From: Anthoceros angustus
Lineage: Eukaryota > Plantae > Anthocerotophyta
Direction: 5' to 3'
NCBI GenBank assembly: GCA_010909165.1
Contig: VJWM01000116.1
Span: 888,585 to 952,584, forward strand
Length of the DNA stretch: 64,000 bases
The notes beneath the pieces were generated by a model. The model had not been told where the DNA came from. It searched no databases and worked only from the letters and a program-made list of their open reading frames with translations. A program made the position numbers and the translations under genes. This document shows positions 41,033 to 64,000 of the stretch, one piece after another; the stretch's first letter is position 1; the number at the start of each line of letters is the position of its first letter.

Positions 41033-42822
41033 CTCCGGCACTCAAAGAAACAACTTGGGCCTTTGAACAATCCTTTTCACTTATACAAACCTCCTTTGCC
41101 CAGGCTGCGAAGGGCGCTGCGATGGGGCTCAAGGTAAGCTCTTCTTGACTCCGGAGAACCTCGATCCGTGGATCTGTTGGGGGATGTATCCAAAGACACC
41201 GTAAGTCGCCCGATGGCGTCTGATTTCTTCCTGAGCAAGGCTGCTAATCTGGTTGTGCCACGGAGCATCGTCCACCACCCGGTCTCCTTCTTTGAGAAGG
41301 TCTTGATCAATTTCATCATCACCAAGAGGCCTTTGGTATGGGCATACCACCAACTTGTCATGGGACAAGTACACCTTCTTTACCACGGTGTCATGGCCTA
41401 TGACGGACCTCCCATTGTTAAAAGTGCCATGCATGGCATTCGGCATCATCGAGCTCGATCCTTTGAACACCCATCTTTCAAGCCCCATCCGGTCACATAC
41501 TCCTTTGTTTCAAATCCTATCATTGCTCATGTTAGTTTTATCCCACACGAAAGACACCAGCCACCCTTCTTACACCACTGCGCGATTCCCGTCTTGTGTG
41601 GGCTTCCTCCACTCCATGCATGACAATCATGCGGAAGTCTTCGCTTAGTTTTCTCATGGAAAAGCTGTACTCAACATAGTGGCATCCATCCGTTTGTCCA
41701 TAGGCCCAATATCAAAGCCTCACACATCCATGACTAACGGGGTGTACCTCCTCACCAAGGTAGCCCCGCATCTCCAAAATATCTCGCTTCTCCACTTGGT
41801 AATGAACCTCCTTCTCGATCCACGAAGTAAAATGTGCAGCCCTTCATGAAGATCAGTATACGCGCTCATTGCTCGTCTTCCAAACTCTTCCAATTATTGA
41901 TCTCGAAAATGAAATTCTTAAAGTCCTCCGGCATTCAAAGAAACAACTTGGGCCTTTGAACAATCCTTTTCACTTATACAAACCTCCTTTGCCTGCTGGG
42001 CCTGCGGGGCTCAAGGTAAGCTCTTCTTCAAAGATCCGGAGAACCTCGATCCGTGGATGCGCCTGGGGATGTATCCAAAGACACCGTAAGTCCGCGATGG
42101 CGATACGCTTCCATGCAGCAAGGTCGCTAATACTGCTGTGCCACTCCGAGCATGCGCCCACCACCTCCTTCTTTGAGAAGGTCTTGATCAATTTCATCAT
42201 CACCAAGAGGCCTTTGGTATGGGCATACCACCAACTTGTCATGGGACAAGTACACCGCTTCTTTACCAGTGTCATGGCCTATGACGGACCTCCCATTGTT
42301 AAAAGTGCCATGCATGGTATTCGCATCATCGGAGCTCGATCCTTTGAACACCCATCTTTCAAGCCCCATCCGATGTCACATACTCCATCGCTTCAACCGC
42401 CCCTATCATTGCTCATGTTAGTTTTATCCCACACGAAAGACACCAGCCACCCTTCTTACACCACCGCAAGATCGATTCTGCATCGTGGGCTTCTCCACTC
42501 CATGCATGACAATCATGCGGAAGTCTTCGCTTGTAGTTTTCATGAAAACTGCTGAAAATCAGACTCAACATAGTGGCATCCATCCGCTTGTCCATAGGCC
42601 CAATATCAAAGCCTCCGGGCACATCCATGACTAATGGTGTACCTCCTCACCAAGGTAGCCCCGCATCTCCAAAATATCTCGCTTCCACTTGGTAATGAAC
42701 CTCCTTCACCACAGAACAGAAAATGTGCAGCCCTTCATGAAGATCTCAGATTCCGCCATAGCTCGCTTTTCCAAACTCTTCCAATTATTGATCTCAAAAT
42801 GAAATTTTAAAGTCCTCCGCAT
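41033..42822. repeat. ~893-bp tandem duplication inside the Sola-like element
   Basis: cctccggca.tcaaagaaacaacttggg at ~41032 and ~41925. tcttccaattattgatctc..aaagtcctcc at ~41887 and ~42777. Confidence 0.85.
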
Positions 42823-44569
42823 TTTCCGTAAGTTGTCTATATCCTTCAATTCTTTGCAGGCAAAAACGAGTAAGTGCATATCTGACGTGTCTGAAACATT
42901 ATGCACCGTAGATCTCAAGGGGGAGGCCGCCGGCGCCTCTGGCCTCAGTTCTATGGATCTGAGATGGCGGCCGGGCTGCCAGCAACTCCATCACATGTGG
43001 AAGTGGCCTCGCCAGCCGCCTGCAAGAACGTTAGGGTTTGTAACGACATGACGAGAGAATTAGAAAACGATGGGTAGTATGGCACACCTTCCCATGAATG
43101 CCGTCTGAACCGAGCTATCATTTGTCGATCATGCAAAGGATATTCCTAACCTCTTGAATGATGAGCAGCCCAAGTGTTTTACCATAGCCACTTGTATAAC
43201 ATGAAACTTCTTCCGTAAGGTAATCTCCTCATCCATACCTTTTAGGTCGACACCCGCCAACACCTTCTCTTACCGATGAGTATCCACGACCGACTCTCCA
43301 CCGAATCTTGAACGATTTCCACGGCTTTGCTAGCATATCCTTCACGAACAAAGGTCAACAACCGAGCCTCTTGTACCTTCCGCTTGCCTTTGCCCTTCTT
43401 ACTTGTTCAGAACATGTTTTTTCCGCAAATTCTCCACCTCCCATTTTGAAAATATTCGATCCACGTTGTCCCAAACCTTCCTCCCGCTGCAAATGCATAA
43501 GATGTGGGTCCGATTGTCCACCTTATTCGCTTGTAAACATCGCCTTCCCGACCTCCGCTGCCCTCAATCAAGCCCAATACACGGTGATAGGTTGAATTTC
43601 CAATTCATGGTCATCCTGACATCATCTCGCCTCGGCAATAAGTTCGCCCTCAAGTACCGACCGCCAATGAAGGACATCTTCTTCCTTTTGTCCGACATCT
43701 TCTTCCTTTTGTCCGACTCGCTGCTGCTATGTCGTCAAGACGGCAGCCCATGGGTCGCTGATAAGAGTGAAGTGATATGTGTCACCGATCATCGAAACCT
43801 ACAGAACCGATGTGCCGCAAATTGGACGAAAGAAAGATTTCGTGAGCAACAGTATAGATTCATAAGAACGTGCACAAGAAAGCAGAGACATTCCTTCGCC
43901 TCAGTCCATCGCGATGTGGACCAATGATAAAGGAAAAGTTGTCACCATGTTATGGGGGAGTGTTCCGACATGTTGTCTCAAGGCTGGCTTTATTGTGGGA
44001 CACATCCCAGATGAGTTGAAGGCTAGAGTTCTTGAACTCACCGTGGATGGTTTCGTAACAAACCCCATACAGCCTGCATGCGCTTAGGGCCATAGCTTGA
44101 TGGACGATTTTTATGTACATGGTCGAGAGGCTCCCAAATGTGAGGTTTTCAATCTTCCCGACACGCATACAAAATTAGAAATATGGTTGCTATACAAACT
44201 AGAAAGGTCACATATGTCACCTACGCGGTTCTAAAGTTAAAGCTAACAGAGTGAAGATCCCAAAGTCAAACCGGCTTCTCGACATGCTCGCTTAGTGGAT
44301 TGAAGACAACCATACCAACTCACTGTATATCGATCAAGGTACCGTGCACTCTTGTTCCTCTCGCATGCCCTTTCTAACCTTTTTGCGTGAACCACCTGCA
44401 GCTTGTCGTGGCCAGACCGGTCCTAGGTGCTTGCTGCATCGCTTTTGGAGGTTTGGGCGCTCTTTACCGGATGGAGGTTTGGTTATAGTCGGCCCCTTAT
44501 ATCACAAGAGAGTGCAGGCGCCCTCTGCTTTCACAAGAGGCAGTCATCATGGGGATGGTTAGTTGCTGC

Positions 44570-45720
44570 TTTTGCATATCCAAACATGTTAGTGGATATG
44601 GGAACTTTTGAGAAAAAGGTGGGGTTTCTTCTGGACATACTCATGATCAAATTGACCAAATGTTTTCATGTTTTTCAAAGAGCTTGAAACATGTGGAAGC
44701 TCATACTCTCGCATTGGCGGCAATTTTGAAAGAGGCGTACACTCCAACACCGAGGTGAAGGTATTAACGGAGGTTCCACTTCCGCTCCTATGTTTGGCCG
44801 TTACGACAAGGGGATGGACGCCAAGCACGGAGTCGGCGTAAATTGAACAACCCGTCATTCCAAAGATCAGCTCAAAATTACAAGAGAAGAAAACGACTGT
44901 GGCCGGTGATACTATTAGAAGCAAACAATATTCGACATCGCCACAATGGGAAACTAAGCCGGTTTGAGTTTTTGAAGTTTGTCCCATCCACGACGTAACC
45001 GCCAAGACGGCCGACATCCCTTCGTGCCCGTGATAAGAAAGGCACATCGTGGTTATCCCCAACCGAGGTGTGGCTCACTTGAAGGAGGGCCTCCGCTTAG
45101 ACCATATGTCACCGCAGAGGAATATAAATGGTGGGAAGAATTTTGGGTGGACCAAGAGGAGATCGTTATTGTGGAGAATAATATAGGGCTCGCACTCCAA
45201 GACGCATGGAAGTGGTTTTCGCGGATGAAGTTGAAGAAAAAATGAGGTTCTTCACGTGCTCGAGGCGCTATAGAGGAGGCTTTACTCGTGGACCTTCCCC
45301 AACGGAATATGTACCTTGGTGCATATCAAACCGTTGTTAGACAAGAACAAGAAACTGCGGTTGAATGGTGACATTTGAAATAAGGAAAGACATGTTCATT
45401 GCCCGCACCACCGGCTGATCGAACAGCGCCGGATTGGCGGTGGTCATTGATGTTCACTTAGATGCACCGATCCTCACTTTGTCGCTCATTGGTACATGAC
45501 GAGCACATGCGTATGAAGGAAGGTATGTTGAAGAATTTATAATCCGACATGAAGGGACCCAGTGACGAAATCGTGGAAAAAGGAGGAAAGCTAATTTGCA
45601 CAAAACGCATAAAAGGTTTTTGTGAACAAAACGTGATCATATATTATGGTTTCAACTTGAATGCTCGCAAACATTTATATTGTGGACAAGAAGGCGATCG
45701 ACTAAAATTAAATGAATTGC
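44570..45720 (+). pseudogene. C-terminal part of a Sola1-like DDD transposase
   Basis: FAYPNMLVDMGTFEKKVGFL/SGHTHDQIDQMFSCFSKSLK (GHTH..IDQ.FS at 44633-44668), then ILKEAY..EVKVLTEV, SKQYSTSPQW, EEYKWWEEFW. The first two catalytic Asp motifs were not found. Confidence 0.7.
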
Positions 45721-48227
45721 GTTTCACAAACCACCAGCCAAAGTGGCCCGTAAGATAGTGAAGATAGTGGTGGTGATGCGAGCCTCATGATGATGACGGC
45801 AATTCGTAAGACGATCGAGTTCATGAACATCCGTGCCAAGATGTTTTGTCTTATGTGGACACGTTTTTCTTCCTTCCTCTCAATAAGTTTCAATAGATTC
45901 TCCAAATTCATTGTCCGTGGAAGGCTATTTTTCCCACGCACTTAACCGTAAAACCGTTGTCTTCCGCCAAGTTCGTCATTATTATGCGATACAAGACCAG
46001 CGTGGAAACCACCTAAGCATAGCGACAAATCCATACGACGAGACATCGATGAAGATGGTGTTCATGTGCAAGACGCATTGCGACGAAGCGTTAACCAAAC
46101 CGAGCGTTGTTTGTATGTCCATAGGCTCCCTCACCGACTGCCCTCGATATGACTTTGCATGTTACGGTTCACCCCAAGTGGGGAACACTATTTCTCTTCC
46201 GGTACAATGGGGCCACAATTACACACGGTCAAAGGGTGTCCATGGACGAGGAGTGAAGAGGGCGCCGGTCGGCCACAGAAACATATTAGATTGTGTTTTC
46301 CAAAACAGGGCCGACATTGACCCTCGACCATTGTACTAACGGCACGAGAGTTGTACTTAATGGAAAAGGACCCGCGACCATGTTTTTAGAGTGTTGGTTT
46401 TGCTCATCGGTCTTCATCATCACCGCACAAATCGTCCCATCCGGGTCCGAAATGGAGCCAAATGGATGTATGAGGGGTTATCAAAACCCTTTGCCTCCTA
46501 CATCGATACACGAAATTTGTGTGCACGGAGATGAACACCCTATTTTGAGGCATTTTGGACCACACGATTCAAAACCCTAAATGGAGACCCATTGGAAACC
46601 CTCATTGCCGAATAAAAGGCGAAAACCCCATGGTGCATATTAACCTCCTGTAATTACCATGTTTGAGGTGGGTCTCGATGGATGCTCGCGGATCGCGACA
46701 TCTGCAGCATGGCATCACGGCCGGCGATGTCTCCGCCGACCGGGTGTGTCCCAAACCGCGTATGCGCCCGAGAGGTGGGATGCCGCCCTTGTCGAATGCA
46801 AGAATTATTGGTTAAAGGCATGTCCGGTTTGGCAACAAAAGATGTAGTACATGTCATGTTGGGGCGACATAAATGCCACCCTACTGTGCCGTGTCGATGA
46901 TCTATGTCAATGTGCCCGCAGATATCCGACATTATGAGGGCATGATAGCGAAGTAAGACATGTGATGTGAAGTAAGGCATATTATAGTGTTGGTTTGTAA
47001 TGTACCTAATCGCGGTTGTGAGAACTATTGTCACCGCAGTGCAGTATCCTGCCACTGGATTCTATGGCAAGCCCGATATGTTGAGACCATATCGTAGAGG
47101 CGTGGGAGGCTGGTTATGGCATCGGGCCGTGGGGCACGATATGGCTCGCTGAGAATTTCGTGATTATCGCCCAAGACATCCCACGCCAACACAGTTGGGC
47201 CAACCCTCTCGCCAGAGGTTGAGGAGGTGGAACATATACATCCGCCCAAGTTAGTGGGTCGAGGACATGCCCCATCAACAACGCTTATGCGACTTAGAGA
47301 ATGGAACACATGTTTTCCATCCTTCATGTGGCGACTCGATGCCAAGGCAATCCTATCGAACTCCATGCGGACATATGTACTGCAATACGACTGTGGGTGT
47401 TTGGTGCTTTAAAAGCAAATCATGGCGTGGGAGATGTTGAGACGGTTCCTGGATCGGACCGGTGAAAACTCCGAGCTCGGAAGGACTAGGCAAAGGCTTT
47501 GTAATTGGGAAAGACACAACGATATCGATTTCGAGGAATCGATCAAGTTCATCACCCTTGACGCAGTGACTCAATGTTGGTACGCTCCGCAGAAGCTATA
47601 TCACATTCAACTCGACGCCCGCTTAACAAACATTGATGTACTGCGGTTGCCCCCGAGCCACGGAAGACTAAGCGGGCGCTTCAATGGGTGAAGTACACGT
47701 ATCGCGTAAAACCCGCGACGAGGGTGATTCTCATCACGCACCGTGTTCTTTTGGTCATAACTACACCTATTGAATAAATTGTTGCATCCCCATGATCCCG
47801 AGAGGGGTCCCGCCTGCTTTATCAAGACCGCTTAGGTGACGGGAGATGGTATATGTACGGTTTGCTCAATTGCTAAAGAATGTCGGAGGAGTTCATCCGT
47901 AATGTGGATTACGCCATTGTGGATGAGGCGGCGTCAGGCGGAAGCATTCGTGGGTGCCACGATGGACTCTTGTGGCCTAGCAAATAGGGTGGAGGACATA
48001 CCGACGGCTCGGCCGTAATCGCAAAGAAGGTTGTCATCATGGAATGGGACATGGATCGACCAAATGGGTTGGTTCACATCGCTGCGTGATGGTGTAGACC
48101 CATCGGATGGGATAAGGTGGCGCGCATCGTTGGAACATAGGCGTTCATGCAACCCATGTTGCTCACATACGCCTATTATGTGTTATTTTTCCGGTATGTG
48201 ACATATTACCGAATGGCGTCTGATGGG

Positions 48228-48358
48228 AGGAGTGTGCTTCAGAGTGAGTGTGCTTACAAGATGAGTGTGCTTACGCGATGAGTGTGCTTACGATGAGTGT
48301 CCTTACATCCGTGACAGGTGAGTGTCCTTACATCCTACAGAGTGAGTGTCCTTACACT
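48228..48358 (+). repeat. Intronic minisatellite (GAGTGT(G/C)CTTACA)n in gene B, copy 1
   Basis: About 7 degenerate copies between a GTATGT donor (~48194) and a CGCAG acceptor (~48378). Confidence 0.8.
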
Positions 48359-50869
48359 GCTTTCCTCTACCTTCGCAGCTCATCACATATGTTAACCGCG
48401 TTTCAACGGCAAGTGCATGTATCCACCGATCGTCGTCAGCCCGCCGAGAATTGTCACCAACTCATGGTTGGTGTGAAGAGCCACATGGAAGCGCATCCTG
48501 GTCTAGGATGAAATCCGAAAGCAACAGGAAGGTGCGTGAAGGATATGGTCCGCGTCGCAGCGACATGGCAAGTAGACTGATGAAGACTTCAACAGGTCTG
48601 CGCCGATTGTGATATTCATTTGGCGAGCCACGTGATTCAATGCGTATCTCGTAGACACCCACTCAAAGCGCTGGCGATGGATGTTTTCCCACTTCTCCAA
48701 CATTCGACGATTGGCGCGAGGTGCAACACATGTTGCGCCGTGAAGTTCATGGATGACCGCCCATGGTAAGAAATTCAAAGTTGAGCCACATCACTCCATC
48801 TCGAAAGAGCGTAAGCGCTCACGGCTTCGCTCGACGCCATTTGTGCTACATGGGGCCGACAGACGCGCACTCGCTATGAACGAGACCGGCAAGTGCATCC
48901 CCATTATCGCCTTGTACCGACGCATCGATATATGTATCTTGTGAATACGGCTCACACTTATGTGGAAGGTGGCTTACATTTTGTAAGGGGGTGTGTTACG
49001 CTTCTTCTTGTGGTGTGTCTTACGCTATGTACCGTAAGGTGTCTTACACCGCAGATGTGTATGCAGGAGTTATAATCGTCGGATGCAAATACAATGTGGA
49101 GGTGGCGACAACCATGTCGGCACACAAGGAGGCTTTGGTGGTAAGAGTGCATCGATGAGAAATGAAGTGGTTTTGGATGCCGATCCGCATAACCAAGAAC
49201 GCGTTCGTTGAGTCCAATGACATATCAGGGCGATAGGTGGGACCCTCCTAATTGGCTGGAGGGAGGATTGGCAAATTCTTTCAGAGGAGTGCCGAGAAAG
49301 GTATGTGTTGTTTTCCATTTTCATTGTTTTGACTTCATGTATTGCCGATTGCTATTGTATATACGATGTCTTCTTGTTTTGATATCATGGCCACAAAAAT
49401 ATCGGGGAACTGCGCATTGGGTGATGCACACGACCACCCATCCTGAGGCGGTTCCATATGGAGTCGCAAAATATGGCGCATGGCGCCGAGGACTTTGGAA
49501 ACCGAGGGGTCGAGTGTTATGGGCTTGGGCGTAATACCGAACAGATTCGTTACCGATCACTGACTCCACCCTCGAAGTTGAGGGGTTCACTGCTTGTAAA
49601 GCGGTGGATTTCAAGCAGCCCGGCCTTGAGCCGCCTTCACATGGACTACGTCATTGCTGGGATGTTTCCAACAATGCATATTGTACCTGTGCATGGGTGA
49701 ATAGGCGGAGTTGATGGACAGCTCATCGAGGTATTTTGTTATCGCGATGAGGTGCCTTACGGATGTGTTCCACCGAGGTATTTTGGCATGTTATCATGAG
49801 CTGAGGCCCATACGGATGTATTTCAGCTAACATGTTTATCGTCAAGCGCCATGCAAAGGTTTACACTTCCGGATGAGGCACCTCGAGCACGCCAAGACAA
49901 CCTCGCACTGGCCGTACGATTTGAGGTTTTTCTATAGTAGGTGCAGAGGGCATCCCCTTCTTGGAACGATAGCAAGTGTCCTACGATGGACAACCGGGCT
50001 GGAATTAAGCAGCGGCGCGTTATCGACTTCGGAGATAGCTGGCGCATCCGGTTCCCGCCAGATAAGCGGAGCGTAATCCAGAGCATACCGCTCCTCCACA
50101 TTATGCAGGCGCCTTTGTTTAGAACATGGCAATAAGAGGGAAGGTGAAGCAGTCGGCAAACACAAGATTATCATTTGGAGAAACACTGTAGTCGCAGAGT
50201 CGTTGAAGCTAGCAATGCAACAAGCGCGAAAGCAAGCCACCAATCTTGGGATGTCATAGCAGAGGAACCCACCGGAGGAAATGTGTTACAATCGCTTATT
50301 CGGGATCTCGCGGACAACTGCTGGCGCACTAATCTATGTGACCGCCATGGGAGAGAGCCGAGGAGTCGTACACGAGCACACCATCGACGACGTCCGGCAA
50401 CAAACATTGCAAGCGGAAGAAGACGCCCGCGTGCAACGAATCGATTGCTTCGAACGGAGGATATCCGCGGCGATCGACTCACGCGATCATAAGACCACCA
50501 GCAGAGTTGATGAGTGCTGGATGAGAGGTGCGAAATGCATCGCGCCGCGTCGCCATTAACCACCCTACGAATGTTGCTTACCGCAACCCCGATAGCGTGC
50601 CTTCATCGCAACATCAGGAAGTTACACGAGTTCGCTAAGATAACATTCGAGCATGTCAGAACGTCTCCTCATACATGTATCGTAGATAGGAAGGGCGACA
50701 CACACAAAAAGGCTTGTTTTGGTCCGCCCGCCATCTTCTTCTATACATTCTACACATGTACACACAAGGCATGTAAGAGACAACTACGTAAGCCATCTTA
50801 CGATAACAAGTAAGGCATCTTCTTGCTCACGAGTAATGCACGTTCTGCACCCAATGTAATGTATGTTAC

Positions 50870-52330
50870 TACCCTAGCGAGGAAGTGAGTGGTGTCTGCG
50901 ACGCAAACCACTCGACAAATCCCCACGGCCCAGTACCCACCGAGAGACCACCCCAACCGCCTAGAGCGGGCATTGTCATGGTTGAGGTGCTGCGCCCACC
51001 ACGTAAGGTGGCGCGCAAGGCATGTTCTGCGCTACGCGAGGTGCCGGGCACGACGCGCAGTGTTGGCAATGATCGCTATGCGGTAGGGTTGGCATTGGGT
51101 TCGAACGGGTTCTGGGGAGTAGTAACATGGATTACATGCCGCATAACGCGCGTCGTACATGTCATGTAGTAACATGCCTTATGCGTGGGCACCTTACCGA
51201 GCTCCGCTTTCCCAACGTCCCGACCTCGGATCGCGGCCAGCACACCACCGTGCCCCGCGCCGCTTCTACTGCGTGAGGGGTCCCCGCCGCAACCGACCGG
51301 TGGGCAATGGCGAAGGTCCTCGGCCCCCACCGGTGTTATATAGAGTATCCAGATGGGACCATAGCAACGGTGAGGAAGTGAGTGGTTTGCCCGCAAACCA
51401 CTCGACCAATCCCCAGGCCCCACACCAGGGGACCACCCCAACCGCGAGCCCCTAGGACATGGTAGCATTGTCATGGTTGGAGGTGCGGTGCCCACTACGA
51501 CGTGAAGGTGCCTTATGCGCAAGGCATGATCGCGACGAGGAGGTGCCTTACGACGCGGCGGCGTAGTGTTGGCATCGGGTTGATGGCCTCATGCTGGAGC
51601 CTTGTTTACATACATTGGATTACGACGACGCGGTAGGGTTGGCATTGGATGCGATATGGCAAAGTGGGAGTAGTAACATGGATTACACGCGCAGTAACAT
51701 GCGTTACATGTCATGTAGTAACATACGCCTTATGCGTGGGCTTTTACGAGTTCCGCTTTCCCAACGCTTCCCGACCGGATCGCCAGAGCACACCACCGTG
51801 CTCCCCGCTGGCGCCTTCAACTCCTCGTGCGAGGTCACCGCCGCAACCGACCGGGTCGGCGGGTCCCTCGTGGCCCCACCCGTGTTATATAGAGTATCGG
51901 TGATGGGACCATAGCGACCAGTGAGAAGTGAGTGGCTTGCCCGACGCGAAACCACTCGACAATCTCTCACACCGCAGGCCCACACCACGGGGGACTACCC
52001 CAACCGCGGGAGCCCCTAGGACGTGGCATTGGTTGGGCGGCTGGAGTGCCCACTATGACGTAAGGTGCCTTTGGCGCGCAAGGCATGTTACCGCTGATGC
52101 GAGGTGCCTGCTGCATTTAATGCTATGCGGTAGTGTTGGCAATGGCGACGCGCGTAGGGTTGGTTACATTGGGTTTAACGCGGTAGCATAGGGGAGTAGT
52201 AACATGGATTACATGCCGCGCGAAGAACGCGGCGCTATACATGTCATGTAGTAACATGCCTTATGCGTGCTGGCATTGGGTGAACGCGGCTTACGCTTAT
52301 CAAAGTAACATGGATTACATTATGCAAGAA
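50870..52330. repeat. ~500-550-bp tandem repeats (about 3 copies) at the distal end of the unit
   Basis: gtgagtgg..cgcaaaccactcgac.aatc at ~50885, ~51378 and ~51928. gggagtagtaacatggattaca..gtcatgtagtaacat at ~51115, ~51666 and ~52192. Confidence 0.8.
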
Positions 52331-52446
52331 CGCGTGACATGTACCCAAGCAACATGCCGTGAGGGTGTTATTCGTAACGTGGCATACATGGTGTCTGTAA
52401 TATGCCTGTGGTAATCCAAAGGCGATCCAAATGGGAGAAGAAAGCC

Positions 52447-52475
52447 GATTTGAAATTCGAATTCAATTTCAAATC
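52447..52475. other. AT-rich hairpin (11-bp perfect arms) at the unit junction; candidate replication origin
   Basis: GATTTGAAATT-cgaattc-AATTTCAAATC. The hairpin is seen directly; the origin function is inference. Confidence 0.55.
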
Positions 52476-52562
52476 AGCACTGGGGGCTGTGAGGGGTTTG
52501 AGGGCGCTTTGGTGTGAAGGCGTTGCGTGTGAGGGACGCTCGTGTTATGTCGCAGGCTATGC

Positions 52563-53032
52563 GGTGCCCGCTTACACGTGAAGACCGCTCACACTTCAAG
52601 GCGGTTTCGGTTGCCGCCGCCGCCACAAAGCCGCGAGTGCATTACACGTGAAGGCTGCTCACCCTTCAGCGGCTCGGTTGCCGCCGCCACAAAGTTTCGC
52701 AGGTGCCTTACACGCGAAGGCCGCTCACCTTCAAGGCGGCTTTTGCCGCCGCCGCCACGCTGGCAGAGTGCCTTACACGTGAAGGCCGCTCACCCTTCAA
52801 GGCGGCCGTGGTTGCCGCCGCCCGCCTACAGCGCAGTGCCTTACACGTGAAGGCCGCTCACCCCAAGGCGGCCGTGGCTTGCCGCCGCCACGGTGTTTCG
52901 CAGAAAGTGCCTTACACGTGAAGGCTGCTCACCCTTCGCGCCGTGGTTGCCGCCGCCGCCACGTTTCGCAGAGTGCCTTACACGTGAAGGCTGCTCACCC
53001 TTCAAGGCGGCTCGGTGGTTGCCGCCGCCGCC
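52563..53032. repeat. Seven ~66-71-bp tandem repeats centred on GCCTTACACGTGAAGGC
   Basis: CACGTG (one CACGCG) cores at 52575, 52645, 52711, 52776, 52844, 52915 and 52981. Confidence 0.92.
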
Positions 53033-55618
53033 ATGGTCGCCCGGAAGGGAAATCAAGGTAATATACTACTTGGGTTTGTAATATAGCTATGAGAAACAAG
53101 TAAACAAGTAACGCTGCTTGATCTATGTTTGCGTGCTCACCAAGGCAAGATATGTAGATGTTCGACTTGCTAACCGCCGCGTGGTCGAGAGGTTCAAGCT
53201 ATCTTTGCGCACTCAAGAATGTCCCACGGGATACAAGGTTGCAAAGCCGACCGGACATTACCTGTGAGAGAGGCACTTCGAAGTGCTCACATCAATTGTA
53301 ACCAGAGCGACTTAAGAGGAAGGCAAAAGGCGCCTGGACCTCAATCGACATGGCCCAATACCAAGGCAAGTATCCGTGCGTGAACGTGCCTTATTGTGTA
53401 TTACAAGAATCGACATCACATTGTGTATTGTAGAATGTACATAGCGAGGATTCCACGAATCGCGTCCGGCAACAAGTGAGAAAAGGCGGAAGGGGGCTGC
53501 GTGACACAAGAAGATGGCGGGCCGTATAATTAGTGAGATTTATGAGGGAAGCGGACGTGAAACAGAGTCCGGAAGATGAGGAGGCCGAACGTGGGAAGTG
53601 AGAAAGCAAAGATTTTCCGTTGGAGTGACAAATGCACATGTGGTCGCTTTTGAGAGGTTTGTAGAGCCCGCCTGTTAGACGAGGTAAATGGCCGGTACAA
53701 GATCGATGGCTTTTCCAGCCTTTGTGCATTGCAAACAAGATAATGCATCTGCATCTATGGAGGCAGAGACGGTGATGCACCGCCTGATTGGGTGGACAGG
53801 GGAAGGGTGGGGAACGCCATCAACGATTACAAGGATTACCATCCCAAGAAGACATTCTAGTGCTGCACTTTTGTGGTTGGGTTTCATTCATCGGGCCAAC
53901 CATGTTGCGTGTTCAAGTTCTTATTTTGAAGAGTTCGAGTGTTTATTCTATTCCTCATGGAACACTTCGAAAGATATGAGCGATGAGGTTATGGGAGCAA
54001 CACTTTTCCAAGATTCAAGAGTTCCCGGTCCCCAAAATTTCCCTGGTAAGTATTTCTTCACCGTCACCATCATTTTCATGTCCTTTCCATGTTCCAATGC
54101 CGTGGTGCAAAGGTATAGAAGACGAGGACATACAAGTGGATGCGCAAGTGAAGTTAATGGAAGAAAGGGCAGCTCGAGAGCACATGAGGACATGGCCACC
54201 GACCATGAACAATCCAACGTCGCGAACGAAGCAGGATGAGGACGAAATAACTGATTCTCATCCGAGGAGGAGGAGGAGGAGGAGGAGGAGGAGGAGGAGG
54301 AGGAGGAGGAGGAGGAGGAGGATGAGGAGGGGAGGAGGTTGGGGAGGAGGAAGAGGAGCGCCAGATGTACAAGGATGGGCGGTTCCAGCATTTTCCCCCA
54401 TGTGCAAGCCATGGTCGGAAGGTAATCGTAGTTTTTCCGGCATGTGCTCTCGATTATCGTGTGTAACAGAATGTAATGCCATGTTAGCAAAGGTGTTTGT
54501 TGCGATTTTACATCGATGGTAAATGCATCTTATGCAATGTGTTTGTTGTGGAACTTACTTACTAGTAATGTGATGTATCTTAAGAGAAGAGGGGAGGAGG
54601 TGAAGGAGGGGAGCAGGAGGGGTTCGTGAAGGGGGGGAGAAAGAGGATGAGGTTCGTGGGGAGGAAGCGAGCCACAGCGGAGAAACAAGGAAGAGGCGGG
54701 TTCCAAGATTTTCCGCATGTTCAAGGCATGGTCGGAAGGTACTATAACGGATAGTTGTAATGTATGTTGAGACATCGCGTTTGTTGTAGAAGTTACAGGT
54801 TTAGCTCTCATGTATGGAGACATCTGCTTTGTTGTGGAACTTAAGACGGTGCACTGTAATGTTTCTTAAGAAGAGGGGAGGACGAGGAGGGGAGGAAGGG
54901 AGGAGGTGGGGTGGAGGAAGAGGAGGAACAAAGCAGGTACAAGGAGGAGGAGGAAGCGGGGAGGAAGGGGTTGAGGTTGGGGAGGAGGAAGAGGAGCCAG
55001 TACAAGGATGCGCTGGTTCCCGATTTCCCCCATGGAAGCCATGGTCGCAAGGTACTGTTTTTTCCTTGCATGCTCACATTATCGAAATGTACATGTTACA
55101 AAGAAAGGTGTTTGTTGCAATTTACATCGCAGCCGTAATGCATCTTACGATGTGTTTGTTATGGAACCACGACGGGTACTGCATCAGATCTTACAAAAAG
55201 GGAGGAGGAGGAGGAGGAGGAGGACGAGTGGGGAGGGGAGGCAGGAAGAACTTCATGGACATGCAGATTTTTGCATGTGCCTCCTCTCCGCTGCCCCCAC
55301 CCGAAGGCGCCTGAGGAGGCCCCTCAACCGAGGCAGATGAGGTACGACCCCTCCCCGCACGAAGACGATTGGCCCGAGGAGTCCACACGATCTCGGCGCC
55401 AGTAAGATGTCGCCCGTGGTTCCTCGAATTGTGGAAGGATCTGATGTGGGATGTTTTGACCCGTAATTGTTGGTTCCTCCATGGCAAAGAAGGGCCACCG
55501 CTGGCGAACCATCTCCACGAGGCTGGTTAGTGCTGCAGGATTGACGCGTGTCTTCAGCGACGCAGCCCCTGGTGGAGCCAACCCCAAGAAGAAGAGGCGG
55601 AGGCGGAGGCGATTTTAA
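53033..55618 (+). pseudogene. Element gene A, copy 2 (acidic, repeated exons, C-terminal PKKKRRRRRRF*)
   Basis: gccgccATGG at 53033, the same intron positions as copy 1, and TAA at 55616-55618. Frameshifted as assembled. Confidence 0.6.
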
Positions 55619-56314
55619 TGTGCTTTACATGAATCAAATGGGCGGTGTACACTTTACCACCGAGGGTGTTTGCATGGATGATAATAAGTTTTACGAAACG
55701 CTAGGTAATGCGTTACATGAATGCGTGGTAAGGTACTTCTACTGCTTAGGGTCTTTACATGACTAACACCTTCGGGGTCTCTAAATTCTTCTGGCAGGGC
55801 GCAGGGTCGGGCGGGTGTAGTCACCGTGGACCATGGGGGAGAGGGGTGCGGCAATGGGTGACTATGTCGCTTTAACCCTAAAGATCGTGAGGTTCTACGT
55901 AATGCGAGAAGGTCCTTTACAACAGTCATGACTTACACCTTTCTCCAACTAACAGTATGGCGCGCGAAAGGCCGGGCGAGGTCGAGGTCGAGGTCGAGGT
56001 GGCCGCCGAGGCGTAGGCCGAGGCGTGGCAGGCGAGGTCGAGGGCGAGGCGAGGGCGAGGTGGAGCGGCGCGGGTGAGGGCGAGGGCGGTGCGGCGCGGC
56101 AGCCGCCACGGACCACGGGGAAGGGGTGCTTGCATGACCGTAACGTGCTTTTAACACTTCACGTGTAAGGTACGTTACACCGATACCGTAAGGGTTGTAA
56201 CATGATTACTGTTGTAAGGTTCTTTACGCCACGCGTGGTCATGACTTACAACCGGCGCCTCTAAATTCAAACCGCAGGGCCGGAGTGGTGGTTGTTCCTT
56301 GAGGCGTGGAGGTC

Positions 56315-59300
56315 ATGGAGTACCGTGGAATCCCCATGTCGGGTGTGAAGTGGTTCTCGACATACAACCGTGCAGAAAAACCAAAACCCCTTCCATGCTG
56401 GAGTTGTTCACGATCCGGTGTTCATGGGCCGGAATTGAAGAGGTTGTGGCAAAACGTTTGTACTTGCTTCCCCTGCTGCTATTTGGGACATTATGTGGAA
56501 GGCGAGGAGTAGTGGAGCTATCTGCTCTTTTTATGATATTGTCCACGCGAACAAGCCAGTTCCAGGGTTTGGGGACGTCGATTTGAAGCCCCACAAGGCG
56601 CTCACCGACGAAGTGCGGGCCAAGTTAAAGGATATATTCGTACAGTGGATATAGCGATGACATGGTAGGGGAGATTTTTCAAATCCATGACAGCCTCGTT
56701 GGAAAGGAGTTCTGCTTTGTTCGGGTTGTTGTGGTGGTGGGAGGTACGTTTTGTAATGTACATTACAATGTTGATATGTAATGTACACTTGAACTTTAAT
56801 CTCTAAGGGCCATGACGACTTTCATCCGTAATATACCCACGTTGTTCATTCTCAATCCCGCAGATACCGCCACTGCGGCGTACTAGCCTCATCGGGTTTG
56901 AGGATTTCGGTGAGAAGGTGCTCCTCTTGAACGCTGCACACAAAATTCTCTTGTCATTTCGTCTTAGAGAGTAATTTTAAGGATCACGTGGTGTCCTTGA
57001 GATCTTGGGCCAGAGCTGGATAGGTTCGCATGGCACGTGGTGTGTCAGGACTTCACTCCACGACGGATGAGGCAGCGAAAGGAATGCTCGCTCGATGATG
57101 TTTTGGACAATTTGTGTTGTCGGGCGAATGGAGGCTTAGAGTTGAAGGACGAGGTCCGAGCCCATTGACGACATAATCGATACACGGAGAAGCAGGAAGC
57201 TTGCGCTGTCAGCGGTTGGACCGTCGAACCATGCACACCGTTGAGGTGGGTCTCGTATGGATGTCGCGGATCGCAGACATCAAGCAAAGCATGGCATCAC
57301 GGTTTCGCGCGATGTCTCGCCGGACCGGTGTCCCAAACCAAAGTGCAGCCGGAGAGGTGGGATGCCGCCTTGCCGAATGCAAGAATTATTGGTTAAAGGC
57401 ATGTCTGGTTTGGCAACAAAAGATGTGTACCGTATATGTCGGTTGGGTACGATGGGGGCTGCTACCCGGCCGTGGTGCCGCGTCGATGATCTATGTCAAT
57501 GTGCCCGCTGATATCCGACACCGTTATGGGCATGTATGCCGAAGTAAGACATGTAAACTGTAAGGCATATTATAGTGTTGGTTTGTAATGTACCTAATCG
57601 GTTGTGAGAACTATTGTCACCGCAGTGCAGGTATCCACGGACTTCTATGCGGGTTCAAGCTCGATATGTTGAGACCATATCGTAGAGGCGGGAGCGCTAT
57701 GGCATCGGGCCGCGGGGCAGCGAACGATATGGCTCGCCGGAGAATTTCGCGGGATTATCGCCCAAGACATCCCACGCCAACACAGAGCTGGCCAACCCTC
57801 TCGCCGCCGCTGTAGGTTGGAGGGTGGAACATACACATCCGCCCGTTAGTGTGGGTCGAGGACATGCCCCATCAACAACGGCTATGCGACTTAGAGAATG
57901 GAACACATGTTTTCATTGGGGTCCTTCATGTGGCGACTCGATGTCAAGGCAATCCTATCCAACTCCATGCGACATGTACGACCACGACCGCATGACGGTG
58001 GGTGTTTGGTGCTTTGGGTGCAAATCATGGCGTGGGAGATGTTGAGACGGCCCGTGGATCGGACTGGTGAAAACTCCGAGCCCTGGAAAGGACTAGGCTT
58101 TGAAGTCAATTGGGAAAGATACAACGATATCGATTTCGAGGAATCGATCGAAGTTCATCGCCCTGACGCAGTGACTCCAACAAGTTGGTACCGTCTGAAG
58201 CTATATCATATTCAATCGACGCCCGCTTAACAAACATTGATGTATTGCAGCCCGAGCTACGGAAGACTAAGCGCGCTCAATGGGTGAAGTACACGTACCG
58301 TAAACCCGCGACGAGGTGATTCTCATCACGCACCGTGTTCTTTTGGGCTGCGAACTACACCTACGCTTGAATAAATTGTTGCATCCCCATGATCCTGAGA
58401 GGGGTCCTGCCCGTTTCTATCAAGACCTGCTAGGTGACGTGGGTGATGGTATATGTACGGTTTGCCTCAATTCGTTGGGGAAGAATGTGTCGGAGGAGTT
58501 CATCCAGAATGTGGATTACGTCATTGTGGATGAGGCAAAGGCTGTGCGGAAGCATTCGGTGGGTGCCACGATGGACTCTGGTGGCCTAGCAAATAGGGTG
58601 GAGGACATACTGACGAGGCTCGTCAGAACTGCAAAGAAGGTTGTCATCATGGAATGGGACATGGATCGACGAACAGTGGGTTGGTTCACATCGCGTGATG
58701 GTGTAGACCCATCGGACAGGGATAAGGTGTATGCGTACTGTTGGAACGTAGGCGTTCCGCGACAACCCATGTTGATCACACACAGCTATTATGTGTTATT
58801 TCCGTATGTGACCGAATGAGCGTGCGACGGAGAGTGTGCTTCAGAGTGAGTGTGCTTACAAGATGAGTGTGCTTACAAAGATGAGTGTGCTTAAGAGTGA
58901 GTGTCCTTACATCGCAGAGTGAGTGTCCTTACATCAGACAGAGTGAGTGTCTCACATCCGCATGCAGTGAGTGTCCTTACATCCGCATGCAGTGAGTGTC
59001 CTTACACTCCGCTTCTCTACCTTTCGCAGCTCATCACATATGTTAACTGGGTTTACACAACGGCAAGTGCATGTATCCACCGACGTCTCAGGCTCCGCCG
59101 AGAATTGTCACCAACTCATGGTTGGTGTGAAGAGCCACATGGAAGCGCATCCTACATGGTCTAGGGATGAAATCCGAGCAACGCAGGGAAGGGTGAAGGG
59201 GATATGGTCTGATGTCGCAAAGGACAAGTGGCAAGTAGACCTGATGAAGACTTCAACAGTGGTCTCATACCGATTGTGATATTCTATTTGGCAGCCCCTG

Positions 59301-61500
59301 ATTCAATGCGTATCTCCGTAGACACCCACTTCAAAGCGGCGATGGATGTTTTCTCACTTCTCCAACACGACATGGCGAGGTGCAACACATGTTGCGCCTC
59401 AGGAAGTTCGAATTAATGGATGACCTGCCCATGGGTAAGAAATTCAGGTTGAGCCACATCACTCCATCTAGAGCATTTCGTAAGCGCCTCACGGCTTCGG
59501 CCCTGGACGCCATTTGTGCTACATGGGGCCGCACAATAGACGCGCACTCGCTTGCGGAACGAGACCGGCAAGTGCATCCCCATTATCAGCTTCAGGTAAA
59601 CATTTCGCCTGACTTACTGATATATGTATACTGTAATACGGCTCACACTTTCTATGTGGAAGGTGGCTTACATTTGTATGGGGTGTGTTACGCTTCTTGT
59701 GGTGTGTCTTACGCTATGTACCTGTAAGGTGTCTTACACCGCAGATGTGTATGCAGGAGTTGGCACTGTCGGATGCCAAATACAATGTGGAGGTGGCGCG
59801 CGACAACCATGTCGGTGCACACAAGGAGGCTTTGGCGGTAGCAAGAGTGTGCATCGACAGTAGAAATGAAGTGGTTTTGGATGCCGATCTGCATAACCAA
59901 GAACGTTACGTTGTGTCCAATGACATAACAGACGATAGGTGGGACCCTCCTAATTGTAGCGGGAGGGAGGATTGGCAAATTCTTTCTGTAGAGGAGTGCC
60001 GAGAAAGGTATGTGTTGTTTTCCATTTTCAGTTGTTTTTGACTTCATGTATTGCCGATTGCATTGATATTCGACAAGATGTCTTCTTGTTTCAGTGATTG
60101 CGATAGCCACAAAATATCGGGGAACTGGCAGATTGGGTGATACACGATCACCCATCCCGAGACCGGCTCCATATGGAGTCGCAAAATATATGCGCAGGCC
60201 GAGGACTTTGGAAATCCCGAGGGCCAAGGAGTGTTCCGTACTGCTTTTGGGCGTAATCAATGTGATTCTCGATCACCGCAGCGACTCCACCGGGTTGAGG
60301 GTTCACCGCTTGTAAAGCGGTGGATTTCTGCCGGCCTTGAGCGCCTTTCATGGACTACGTGTCGCCGATGTTTTCCAACAATGCATATTGTACCTGTGCA
60401 TGGGTGAATAGGCAGGAGTTGATGGACAGCCTCATCACGAGGTATTTTGTCATGTTATCTGATGTTGAGGTGCCTTTACGATGTGTTCCATCGAGGTATT
60501 TTGGCATGTTATCATAAAGGAGGTGCTTCGGATGTATTTCAAATATGTTTATCGTCACACATGCAAAAGTGTTACACGGATGAGGTGCACCTCAGAGCAC
60601 GCGACAACCTCGCACTGGCCGGGGGCCGCATTTGGAGGTTTTTCTATAGTAGGTGCGTAAGAGGGCATCCCCTTCTTGGAATGGGATAGCAAGTGTCCTA
60701 CGGCGGACAATAGGCGGGAATTAAGCGAGCAGCGTTATCGACCTCGGAGATAGTCATGATCCGGCTCCCGCCGAGAGAAGCCGTAACATCCGAGCATACC
60801 ACCGCCCACATTATGCAGTGCGCCTTTGTTTAGACATGGCAATAAGAGGGAAGGTGAACAAGCCGCGGCAAACACAAGATCATTTGGAGAAACTGTGGTC
60901 GCAGAGCTGTTGAAGCTAGCAATGCAACAAGCGCCGAAAGCAAGCCACCAATCTTGGGATGTCATAGCAGAGGAACCCACCGAGTTGGGAAATGTGTTAC
61001 AATCGCTATTCAGATCTCGCGGACAACGCTGACTAATCTATGGCGCACCGGGCCGATGGGGAGCTGAGCGAGTCGTACACGAGCACGTACCATCGACGAC
61101 GTCCGGCAACAAACATTGCAAGGAAGGGAAGACGCGTGGGCAACGAATCGCCACGCAACGCGGACAGAGGAATCATGACGACTACGCGATCCTTAAGACC
61201 ACGCGAGTTGATGAGTGGATGAGAGGTCTAAACATCGGTGCCGTGTCGCCATTAACCACCTTACGAATGTTGCTACCGCAACCCCTTTAACGCGTGCTTA
61301 TCGCAACATCGTGGAAGTTACCCGAGTTCGCTAAGATAATATCTCGAGGCTGCTGCCGTAACGGGTCTCCCCCATACATGTACGATAGAAAGGGCCACAC
61401 ACATGTGCAGTTGTTTTTGGTCCGCCCGCCATCTTCTTCTCAGACATTCTACACATGTACACACAAGGCACAAGAGACAACTACGTAAGCCATCTTACGT
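56315..61500 (+). pseudogene. Element gene B, copy 2: uninterrupted PrimPol-UL9-like helicase fusion gene, spliced; frameshifted as assembled (possibly sequence error)
   Basis: FYDIVHANKP..FGDVDL and KFSCHFVL. ORF 58316-58819 reads ILITHRVLL..CTVCLNSL..VDYVIVDEAKAV..ATMD..LVRTAKKVVIMEWDMD. Then DCDI..SP..ISVDTHF..QHMLRLR, resembling UL9 motifs V/VI. End is approximate. Confidence 0.78.
58830..59008 (+). repeat. Intronic minisatellite (GAGTGT(G/C)CTTACA)n in gene B, copy 2
   Basis: About 9 degenerate copies, longer than in copy 1. Confidence 0.8.
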
Positions 61501-62098
61501 ATACACCGAAGGCGCCTTCTTGCTCACGAAAAGGGCGGCAGCACATCGCACCCAATGCGCCGTTACCACCCCAGCGGCGAAGTGAGTAGTCGCCGTCGGA
61601 CGCAAACCACTGACAAATCCCCACAAACAAAGCCCACACCACGGAGGGGACCACCTCAACCGCCGGGGAGCCCCTAGGACGGCATTGCTCGCGGCTGGAG
61701 GTGCGCTGCGCCCACTACCACCGTGGCAGTTCAGCCTTATCATCTTTGCGGCACCTCAGAATATCCACGGGGATACGATGCAAAGGTGCCCGATTACTCC
61801 GAGACTGACTGCGTGTAGTGCACTTCACAGAAGTGCAGGAGCGGCTTCTTAGAAGGGGTTGGCATTAAGGTTCAACCCGATAGCGTGGAGTTCTGATGGG
61901 AGTAAGTAACATGGATTACAAGGCATGAGACCAGCGAATCGGCACAGCATGGCATGTACCACATCTAGTAACATGCGTAAGTGCGCGTGCCTTAGCTGTA
62001 TTACGACTCTGCTTTCCATCACATTGTGTATATGTTTAGTCCGACTTCCGAGGATCATGACGAGGCACACCACCGTGATCCAATTTCTTGTGTGCAGC

Positions 62099-63640
62099 GT
62101 GAAGGTACTCACCCTTCAAAGCGGCTTTAAGGGTAGTTCTTCTGGTTGTACCTTAAAGCAAGAAGATGGCGGGCGGAAATCGAAGGTAATATACTACTTG
62201 GGTTTGTAATATAGCTTAGTCCAAGAGAAACAATGTAAACAAATACTTAACGCGGCATTTCCGATCTATGGAGTTTGCGAGGCTCGACCAAGAGCAAAAT
62301 AGCCTCTGTGATGCTCTGCGGCGGTGGTCAACTTCGGTGACCGTTGCATTAGTCGAGAAGGTTCAATTGCTATCCTTACGGTGAGCAACCTCAAGACATT
62401 TGGATTCTGAGGCGACAAGGGTTACAAAGCATTGGAGACCCAGATAACTTGGTAGGAATGAGAGTAGCACTTCTGGAAGTGCTACTGTGATGGCATGCGT
62501 TACATGTCGTATGGCGGCAGCGTTGGAAGGCATAGAAGGCGCCAACGTTCCGACCTCAATCGACCTGGCCCAATACCACAAGTGATATCACGTGCGATGT
62601 GATGCCTTATTCGTGGCGTGCCCTTACGATGCGTGAGGGTCTGCTCGCCCACGTATTGTTTAGAATGTACATAAGCGAAGGGGTTACGAATCACATTGAA
62701 CAGTCGAGCTATCGGCATTGGCGGAGAAAAGGCGGAGAGGAAATCGGCTATGTGCACCAAGAAGATGGCGGGCAGGACAATTGTGAGAAGTGAGTGGCTA
62801 TGCGGACGCAAACCACGACGTAAATCCCCATGAAGCAGTGCCACACTGCAGAGTGACCACTAGCAGCGTGCTTGGGCGAGAGAAGTAGCATTGGTTGGGC
62901 GGTGCTTGCGAAGTTAGGTACCCATGAACGCCAGCATGTGTAGCGTAAAGATTTATCGCAGCATCATAAGGCATATTCTTTGACAGGCGGTGGTGCTAAC
63001 CTGAGACGGCGTGTAGTGTTGCGATAGTAGTTGTTGGCGTGCCTTACGGGAAACCTTGTTTACTTGGCGTGCGTTACATTGACGACATTGGCATTAGGGT
63101 TGGCATTGATGGCATAACTCTAGTTACATAGTGAGTAGTAACATGGATTACATGCTTGCCTGATAGCGTCGTTACATGTCGTTACATGTCATGTAGTAAC
63201 ATGCCTTATGTCGTGGGCTGCTACTTACGAACTCAGGTTTCTAGCGGTCGACCTCGGATCTCATGAGCACTGCCAAAGAGCACCACCATGCCTTCTACAC
63301 ATGGGGCCCTCCCTTCAGCTACTGCATGCAGGTGGTCACTGAAGCGAACCCTCGGGGTGGTGGTCTGAAGGGTCCTCGGGTGGCATCACTCAGTGTTAGT
63401 ATAGAGTGTCGGTGATGGGACCATAGCGGCAAGTGAGAAGTGAGGGAGTAGGTGGCTTGCGGACTTAAAACCACTCGACATAATCCCTCAAGGCAAATCA
63501 CAGTGCCCACTGCACAGAGACCACCCCCCCGTAGAGAGCCCCCTCAGGGGCGTAGCATTATTGTCGTAGTTGGAGGTCTTGGGTGCCCACTATGACGTAA
63601 AATTGCCTTATCGGCGCGCAAGGCGACGGTGGGGTGCCCC
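62099..63640 (+). mobile_element. Garbled start of a third unit interleaved with 520-bp-repeat sequence
   Basis: gtgaagg..ctcacccttcaa (~62100), ggaaatcgaaggtaatatactacttgggtttgtaatatagc (~62175), tgtttagaatgtacata (~62657), mixed with gtaacatggattaca repeats. Confidence 0.55.
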
Positions 63641-64000
63641 TTCACAGGCGGCGCGTGTGAGGTGCATGGGTTGGTTCACGTGCGCTGACGATGAAATGGT
63701 CGACATCCAAGAAGGTAATGATCATTTACGCTGCCAAATCCATTTTCCGGTTGATGAATCCATGGCTAAAATGACTTTCCGAAAGCAATAGTAAAGACCC
63801 AACAAACCTTAAATGGCGATCAAACAACAATGTTCCCACCCATGGGGATCCGGGATATGATGACAGTCAAGTTCAAATCCTCTCATTGAGATACGAAAGA
63901 TAGTTGAGAAAGGTAATACATTTCAATTATCGAATTGAATCTCCGTGAACATTTCTAACTCGATATCTTGTTACAAGATTAACGAGCACACTATGTTCAC

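Follow-up and report, generated by a model that had tools for sequence, protein, structure and literature searches.

Helicases that resemble the herpesvirus protein UL9 and are fused to a primase have been described before. The available portion of Koonin et al. (2006, PMC1594570) tabulates this combination for asfarviruses and mimiviruses, and the corresponding portion of a preprint on mriyaviruses (10.1101/2024.02.29.582850) reports it for mimivirus R8, for pF1055L of African swine fever virus (ASFV), for ostreid herpesvirus 1 (OsHV-1), and for some Yaraviridae. Bacterial and phage versions, in which a UL9-like helicase is combined with an archaeo-eukaryotic primase (AEP), are covered in the accessible text of Kazlauskas et al. 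(2018, PMC5862659); fusions of this type are the All3500-family primases (pVOG 9714) and D2 of phage T5. Here, we analyzed a stretch of 64,000 nucleotides (nt) from the hornwort Anthoceros angustus (contig VJWM01000116.1, positions 888,585 to 952,584 of the forward strand), which is referred to below as the window. Taken together, the results make it probable that the window contains two dead tandem copies of one large gene encoding a PrimPol-like primase, a C..C site, and a UL9-like helicase, and that this gene likely stems from a small virus- or plasmid-like replicon. An earlier annotation made from the letters alone, the sequence-only reading, had proposed an intron-containing fusion gene of this kind at 56315–61500. 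The architecture that it had deduced is real and was well seen from the raw sequence. The implied novelty of the fusion is not sustained: this type of gene is already known from giant viruses, as the two sources on asfarviruses, mimiviruses, and mimivirus R8 state in the portions available, and the window holds a dead example of it, not a live novel fusion. A literature search, with most subscription journals outside its scope, returned no report of the fusion in a plant genome, nor of linear replicons with a single primase-helicase gene.

Comparison of the window with itself using blastn revealed a unit that is present twice on the forward strand, with 82–86% identity between the copies. Copy 1 extends over 36067–50926 and consists of two parts (36067–40520 and 46663–50926), which are separated by an insertion of 6.1 kb, and copy 2 extends over 52907–61624. 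In both copies, 3.3 kb of unassigned sequence are followed by the remains of the primase-helicase gene. The stretch flagged by the sequence-only reading is the gene part of copy 2; the ATG start codon that it had placed at 56315 is present, and its statement that the gene exists in two copies was correct.

Both copies are neutrally decaying pseudogenes without a present function. The longest open stretch on the forward strand comprises 171 codons in copy 2 (58304–58816) and 114 codons in the gene part of copy 1, and the motifs discussed below are spread over different forward frames. Roughly one in ten aligned columns between the copies is a gap (131 of 1,335 columns in one aligned piece). In the gene part, the copies differ by 159 indel events, only 33 of which have a length divisible by three, and the substitutions within the open reading frame (ORF) 58304–58816 are distributed evenly over codon positions 1, 2, and 3 (21, 18, and 22, respectively). 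Assembly errors are an unlikely cause of the frame breaks, because host ORFs in the same window are intact, including one of 1,638 amino acids (aa) and one of 517 aa. In the N-terminal stretch, each frame break is found in one of the two copies but not in its counterpart: 39540–39785 is open in copy 1 and 56439–56651 in copy 2, and these are overlapping sequences. The gene was thus probably still open there when the two copies diverged.

The 171-aa ORF 58304–58816 matched the Pfam family Herpes_ori_bp (PF02399) with 17.9 bits (E 9e-4), which is under the gathering cut-off of 20 bits, and in the PHROGs database it matched only phrog_4913, annotated as “replication” (E 2.9e-6), and one unnamed family. 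A HMMER search of 1.84 billion proteins yielded 13 matches at E ≤ 0.001, the best with an E value of 7.4e-7, and identities of 30–37%. The Herpes_ori_bp cut-off was passed by 11 of these 13 relatives, while P0010 reached 19.4 bits and P0009 had no match. Several other searches were negative or nearly so: phmmer with the window ORF alone found no match in the PDB at E ≤ 10, a word-indexed search for longer proteins gave no match with the ORF and three proteins only with the alignment A1, and scans of IMG/VR with the ORF and with A1 recovered no relatives. The relatives are single ORFs, e.g. of 1,433 aa (L003) and 1,521 aa (P0003). Six long relatives of 1,095–1,885 aa have a common N-terminal half with the motifs hFDIEIK, KFSLHVV, and DTPxDE..Y..H..R and a C..C pair, followed by the helicase motifs.

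The profile of the 13-sequence family was compared with the sequences in the PDB, where it matched UL9 of HSV-1 (herpes simplex virus 1) with an E value of 2.2e-12; the next helicase was PRP16 (0.0043), and human PrimPol was matched with an E value of 3.7e-4. For structural comparison, the intact relative L003 was modelled with AlphaFold2 in two parts, i.e. the first 560 aa (mean predicted local distance difference test score, pLDDT, 76.7) and the remaining 873 aa (pLDDT 74.5). In a Foldseek search of the PDB, the best match of the first part was human PrimPol (E 7e-11, target-normalised template modelling score 0.60–0.66), followed by the primase domains of herpesvirus UL52 and poxvirus D5/E5. 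In BFVD, the same part matched giant-virus proteins annotated as superfamily 2 (SF2) helicase or as replication origin-binding with E values of 1e-10 to 3e-5, including proteins of Terrestrivirus, Catovirus, Bodo saltans virus, and Marseillevirus as well as ASFV F1055L; a putative primase of OsHV-1 was also matched. For the second part, the origin-binding protein of HSV-1 occupied the top four positions (E 7e-14 to 2e-11), and the next helicase followed at 2.3e-8. The Z scores of VIA-align did not separate UL9 (20.6) from DEAD-box helicases (~21), with which it ties, but UL9 alone extended beyond residue 462. The alignments of the C-terminal model to UL9 run to model residues 699–728, with residue 728 paired with UL9 residue 818, but have a root mean square deviation of 11–13 Å. 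The profile of the intact relatives and the folds modelled for one of them support the proposed architecture of a PrimPol-like AEP and a UL9-like SF2 helicase, and both halves are detectable in the window.

Among 2,788 fragments of the window, ORF 58304–58816 matched the family profile with an E value of 6.8e-18. Because frameshifts split the signal elsewhere, a custom script was written for frameshift-tolerant alignment of the profile to DNA, and parts of the two copies were compared with 60 dinucleotide shuffles each. Copy 2 (55900–61900) scored 163 bits over profile positions 102–974, corresponding to DNA positions 56451–59838; its reverse complement scored 35 bits and its reversed sequence 40 bits. 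The part of the copy 2 pseudogene with detectable homology to the family extends over 56315–59838. The primase half of copy 2 (55900–58300, profile positions 1–560) scored 53.3 bits versus 21.2 ± 2.4 bits for the shuffles. In copy 1, the AEP remnant in the 5’-part of the pseudogene (39552–40520), also recognised by its motifs, scored 30.1 bits versus 19.6 ± 3.3 bits (39100–40600, profile positions 1–560). The 3’-part of the copy 1 pseudogene (46663–49400, with an approximate 3’-limit) contains the rest of the AEP, the C..C site, and the helicase, and scored 37.1 bits versus 19.8 ± 2.7 bits at 46600–47800 (profile positions 1–640) and 69.3 bits versus 27.8 ± 4.4 bits at 47600–51200 (profile positions 560–1366). 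None of the 60 shuffles reached the score in any of these four cases. With strict penalties, the helicase of copy 2 retained 86 bits, whereas copy 1 fell to 30 bits, which is at noise level, and its alignment strayed into the insertion; the decay of copy 1 is too advanced for this setting.

The relatives had been picked by the helicase alone, and the match of the primase half is therefore independent evidence for the fused layout. In the window, the remnants of primase and helicase lie on one strand, in the same order and with the same spacing as in the relatives, and this arrangement suggests that a single ancestral ORF joined the two.

Towards the 3’-end, the agreement with the family stops. 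The region 59400–61900 scored 20.1 bits against profile positions 890–1366 versus 18.7 ± 2.8 bits for the shuffles, 16 of 60 of which reached this value, and no family signal was found in copy 2 past ~59840 when the frameshift-tolerant alignment was extended to 61900. As this is the level of shuffled sequence, neither a gene end at 61500 nor a UL9-type DNA-binding domain is supported. Origin binding by the encoded protein, as proposed in the sequence-only reading, is likewise not supported, as the window shows no detectable homology to a C-terminal DNA-binding domain of the UL9 type.

The motifs of the two halves were searched with 19 patterns, i.e. the strings listed in the sequence-only reading and a few sub-strings thereof, in the three forward frames of the window. 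Fifteen of the 19 patterns occur between 36 and 62 kb and nowhere else on the forward strand of the window, and they do so in the order that had been stated. KWFSTYN, KRLYLL, FYDIVH.NKP, FGD[AV]DL, KFSCH, LITHR, GATM, VVIMEWDMD, and QHMLR are present in both copies; LFAHDL and IFKDH were found in copy 1 only, and KFSCHFVL, VCLNSL, YVIVDE, and ISVDTHF in copy 2 only. Thus, most of the motif list stood. GKT is also present, but this string is too short to be specific, and the three forward frames contain no continuous string for PID..YT, AP..GKT, or SP....ISVD.HF, which need frame repair.

The PrimPol-type motifs I and II are recognisable as remnants that align to the family. Motif I is represented by FGDVDL in copy 2 (56568–56585) and by FGDADL in copy 1 (39816–39833), both corresponding to hFDIEIK of the family, and the profile segment around the family motif matches residues 77–130 of human PrimPol. 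Motif II is represented by KFSCH (56943–56957 in copy 2 and 40197–40211 in copy 1), which is directly preceded by GCRPT in copy 1; the copy 1 fragment DRKVLHLNGCRPTKFSCH aligns to vrvlsGCRrdkFsLH of the family, with GCRPTKFSCH opposite GCRrdkFsLH. The third motif had been claimed as PID..YT and was not confidently located. Between primase and helicase, CFGC at 58010–58021 aligns to the invariant C..C pair of the family (C531 and C534 in the alignment A3), and we infer that this site is zinc-ribbon-like. The stretch “YNDIDFEE” at ~58110 was considered as a motif III out of order and rejected, as it fits the family stretch that follows the C..C site.

The remnant of the helicase core extends over 58249–59403 and comprises Walker A, LITHR, VCLNSL, YVIVDE, GATM, VVIMEWDMD, ISVDTHF, and QHMLR. 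The SF2 motifs I, Ia, II (DExx), and III follow one another in order at 58249–58573, as SPSYG/KT, LITHR, VCLNSL, YVIVDEA, and GATM. The Walker A remnant SPSYG/KT is degenerate and is split by a frame change (indicated by the slash).

Five introns had been postulated for the gene, and five candidates on the forward strand, which are AT- or T-rich segments at the postulated places, were analyzed in copy 2 (^ denotes a splice site). Candidate intron i at 56744–56807 (39986–40049 in copy 1) has a length of 64 nt, an AT content of 72%, and the boundaries GAG^GTACGT...CTCTAAG^; alternatively, it could extend to 56863 (120 nt). The 64-nt version breaks the frame in copy 2, and the 120-nt version would delete a conserved helix of the family. 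Candidate intron ii at 57544–57630 (87 nt, GAA^GTAAGA...GTGCAG^) contains 32% T versus 22–27% in its flanks, its removal leaves 183 codons open, and copy 1 retains both splice sites. Candidate intron iii at 58804–59029 (226 nt, TCC^GTATGT...TTTCGCAG^) would join the ORF starting at 58304 in phase to the ORF ending at 59276, giving 249 open codons. Candidate intron iv at 59596–59744 (149 nt, CAG^GTAAAC...CACCGCAG^, 36% T) would likewise join the ORF starting at 59302 to the ORF ending at 60038, giving 196 open codons. Candidate intron v at 60008–60094 (87 nt, AAG^GTATGT...TGTTTCAG^, 48% T) is followed by 15 open codons only, and its acceptor has been lost in copy 1.

Several observations are consistent with introns ii–v, and we regard these four as plausible from their sequences. 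In four of the five candidates, the T content is 32–48% versus 22–27% between them, most of the candidate splice sites are kept in copy 1, and no profile positions are skipped across intron iii in the strict run or across the gap holding intron iv in the lenient run. The case is weakened by the ease with which GT-AG pairs join ORFs in phase by chance: a host gene of the PTR2 type, considered as an intron reference, was uninformative, as 13 equally valid GT-AG pairs join two of its ORFs. The gap boundaries chosen by the alignment were also considered as a test and discarded; they did not coincide with GT-AG sites, because exon ends carry little profile information. Hence, of the five introns postulated, four are intron-like (GT-AG, T-rich) and as yet unproven, and intron i as delimited (64 nt) does not fit the frame in copy 2. 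If real, the probable introns suggest a long residence in, or an adaptation to, the nucleus. Intron iii holds minisatellites with periods of 16–17 and 25 nt (units of the GAGTGTGCTTACA type) at 58832–59012 in copy 2 and 48230–48356 in copy 1; being present in both copies, they predate the divergence of the copies.

These results bear directly on the proposal that the locus is a live, intron-containing gene, which would encode one polypeptide of 1,400–1,500 aa that binds the origin, unwinds it, and primes. The motifs in the right order and the good-consensus introns that extend the open stretches to 183, 249, and 196 codons are in its favor. However, the frames still break between the joined stretches after removal of all candidate introns, most indels between the copies have lengths not divisible by three and the substitutions are spread evenly over the codon positions, a likely transposon of 6.1 kb interrupts copy 1, and the family signal ends at ~59840. 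A polypeptide of the proposed length could not be made now from either copy, as both carry frameshifts or stops together with neutral indels and substitutions. A live gene is therefore very hard to reconcile with the data, and we assign next to no probability to it.

The intact relatives of the gene all reside on contigs of 4.6–12 kb. In these contigs, the primase-helicase gene is the one large ORF and is accompanied by a few small ORFs that could not be assigned to a known family; an atlas search with a neighbouring ORF of L003 gave no usable match, and by eye nothing intron-like was seen in the split ORF of L001. The contig of L001 (9,932 nt) carries a perfect inverted repeat of 2,147 nt that reaches the contig end, and that of L004 an inverted repeat of 123 nt that also reaches the contig end. 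Short palindromes, with units such as TAAATCGCGATTTA, are arrayed at one end of the contigs of L003 and L004. These contigs could represent entire or nearly entire small linear replicons that carry a single giant initiator gene. For 10 of the 13 relatives, the clusters were looked up, and these relatives came from metagenome or run assemblies, except for one NCBI record that is labelled as a bacterial metagenome-assembled genome (MAG).

The genomic context of the relatives is relevant for a second alternative, namely that the copies go back to a domesticated plant gene, once cellular, which underwent tandem duplication and later lost its function, without any biology of mobile elements. Probable spliceosomal introns, a tandem arrangement that adjoins ordinary host genes, and a unit without terminal inverted repeats would all agree with such a history. 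Nevertheless, no match among the 13 listed in the search of 1.84 billion proteins exceeds 37% identity, no plant name is found among the 10 relatives that were looked up, and the relatives reside on small contigs with inverted repeats. We consider a cellular origin highly improbable.

A third alternative is that the locus represents a piece of a giant-virus genome (Nucleocytoviricota) that had become integrated, comparable to the islands in Physcomitrella that resemble nucleocytoplasmic large DNA viruses (NCLDVs). This view draws support from the N-terminal model of the relative, which matches giant-virus proteins with the E values given above, and from the NCLDV relics known in early-diverging land plants (PMC4083422, accessible portion). 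On the other hand, the 120 ORFs examined in the 28-kb region around the copies yielded no further viral gene, whereas the islands of P. patens are described in the same portion of that source as holding 2–16 gene families with a D5-type (superfamily 3, SF3) primase-helicase instead. Furthermore, introns are probable at the locus, and the N-terminal half in the window is long (~580 aa before Walker A), like that of the relatives on small contigs. An origin as a giant-virus fragment is thus rather improbable.

We therefore favor the interpretation that the window contains two dead copies of a gene from a small replicon, and the following course of events is proposed. The ancestral gene would have been one open, probably spliced frame of ~1,200–1,500 aa, which derived from a mobile replicon and not from a cellular lineage. 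Its protein would have initiated the copying of the DNA element that encoded it, which was likely a small replicon resembling a virus or plasmid. The helicase half would have opened the origin, where the first primers would have been made by the primase half. A possible origin is an array of a 66-nt repeat with the sequence CACGTG, which lies on the forward strand at the 5’-edge of copy 2 (52571–53033, ~7 units) and of which two units are found at 36067–36212 in copy 1. The core 23-mer of this repeat has nine matches in the window, all on the forward strand and all at the two unit edges, with 0 expected. The array could be an iteron-like origin or a plain satellite. A more far-reaching version would be that the copies are fossils of an undescribed eukaryotic self-replicating element, i.e. 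a small linear replicon with a PrimPol and UL9-like initiator and repeat-array origins, which invaded the nuclear genome of a land plant, gained spliceosomal introns, and multiplied in tandem; its free-living cousins would be the metagenome contigs of 6–10 kb that are bounded by inverted repeats. We regard this version as a whole as speculative and unlikely.

Several points weigh against the favored interpretation. With respect to the primase half, a plain hmmsearch of the N-terminal fragments gave weak, albeit collinear, matches (E 0.27 for the motif I region and 8.4 for the motif II region), and the strong N-terminal score was obtained with a custom alignment script and a profile of 13 sequences. 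AEP motif III (DTPxDE..Y..H..R in the family) has a candidate found by eye, NVPADIRHRYGHVCR at ~57500–57543, which was placed neither by hmmsearch nor by the alignment. In a tree of the helicase cores, a very long branch (1.86) leads to the window fragment, which groups with P0008, P0006, and P0013 (97/93); as the profile of the long form finds no match in the N-termini of P0008 and P0013, the tree is at odds with the N-terminal evidence. The grouping is probably due to long-branch attraction of the decayed sequence, and any exact affiliation is tentative. With respect to the replicon, a distance of 3.3 kb separates the 66-nt repeats from the gene, no inverted repeats of ≥30 nt that bound the unit were found between 35.5 and 64 kb, and the tandem pair could be an ordinary segmental duplication of the host. 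One of the relatives is labelled as a bacterial MAG and none has a trusted organism name, and the probable introns would be unusual for a freshly integrated virus. P0008 and P0013 have a shorter N-terminus of a different kind, in which DIDGG or DFDDG occurs together with SH-type motifs. Judged by eye, these N-termini resemble bacterial or phage AEP primases, so that one search appears to have returned two N-terminal types of the fusion.

The insertion in copy 1 (40521–46662, 6,142 nt) is flanked by a 5-bp duplication of TTGAG (40516–40520 and 46663–46667) and has imperfect terminal inverted repeats beginning with ACATGGTAATT; at the matching point, copy 2 is continuous. No Pfam domain was found in the ORFs of the insertion, which is likely a non-autonomous DNA transposon. 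It holds an internal tandem duplication of ~900 nt (41031–41935 and 41924–42823, 87% identical).

In the remainder of the repeat-rich part of the window, which reaches from 36 kb to its end, no other recognisable domain was detected among 120 ORFs of ≥85 aa between 35.6 and 64 kb; the helicase ORF and one spurious sub-threshold match were the yield. The upstream 3.3-kb part of each unit contains a (GAG)n run, with 54 units in copy 1 (37445–37605) and 32 units in copy 2 (54264–54358), whose translation would be poly-Glu or poly-Gly from the forward strand and poly-Leu, poly-Ser, or poly-Pro from the reverse strand. The stretches that follow the copies (50926–52571 and 61624–64000) share only short pieces, for example 51925–52049 with 61579–61704 and 51861–51932 with 63370–63444, and the former stretch has an internal repeat (51080–51528 and 51630–52087, 79% identical). 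Upstream of copy 1, three host genes are encoded on the reverse strand: a gene of the NFXL1 type at 7023–11939, which is a single open frame of 1,638 aa, a POT/PTR2 transporter gene at 26904–28563, and the 517-aa ORF at 33987–35540. The last is 83% identical to its best homologue, an unnamed match, and its best named homologues are from liverworts, a moss, a lycophyte, and gymnosperms, with 69–73% identity.

If the favored interpretation is true, a DNA element with a viral hallmark initiator, in which a primase is fused to a UL9-like helicase, was once present in an early-diverging land plant. This would be one more of the few DNA-virus-like fossils known from land plants, among which the Physcomitrella relics carry D5, according to the available part of their description (PMC4083422). 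The more useful lead may be the contigs of the relatives. If these are complete genomes, they would be among the simplest primase-helicase replicons and would represent a tractable system for the question of how the fusion finds and primes an origin.

Compared with described proteins, the locus combines features of several systems. HSV-1 UL9 is the best PDB match of the helicase half by profile and by fold, as determined with the family and not with the window sequence; the profile match covers UL9 residues 73–176 only, and UL9 is without a primase domain. Human PrimPol is the best PDB match of the N-terminal half of the family, with ~15% identity, and the window keeps remnants of motifs I and II; in contrast to the fusion, the human protein is a separate cellular enzyme that bears a zinc finger at its C-terminus and lacks a helicase. 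The fusions of the All3500 and T5 D2 type have the same combination of domains. The helicase of the window groups, on its long branch, with P0008 and P0013, which have a short-primase look, whereas its N-terminal remnants match the long, eukaryote-like form and not the short one. With the relatives L001–L004, P0003, P0004, P0012, and others, which come from marine and other metagenomes, the window could be aligned over both halves, and no member exceeds 37% identity. These metagenome relatives are intact and intronless and are bounded by inverted repeats with palindromic end arrays, whereas the window has direct 66-nt repeats on one side only. The proteins of mimivirus R8, ASFV pF1055L, OsHV-1, and some Yaraviridae have the same order, with an N-terminal AEP and a C-terminal UL9-like SF2 helicase, a likeness that is based on the domain order given in the available sources and on the fold matches in BFVD. 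In contrast to this giant-virus and malacoherpesvirus type, the copies in the window are dead, reside in a plant nuclear genome, probably bear introns, and have a longer N-terminal half.

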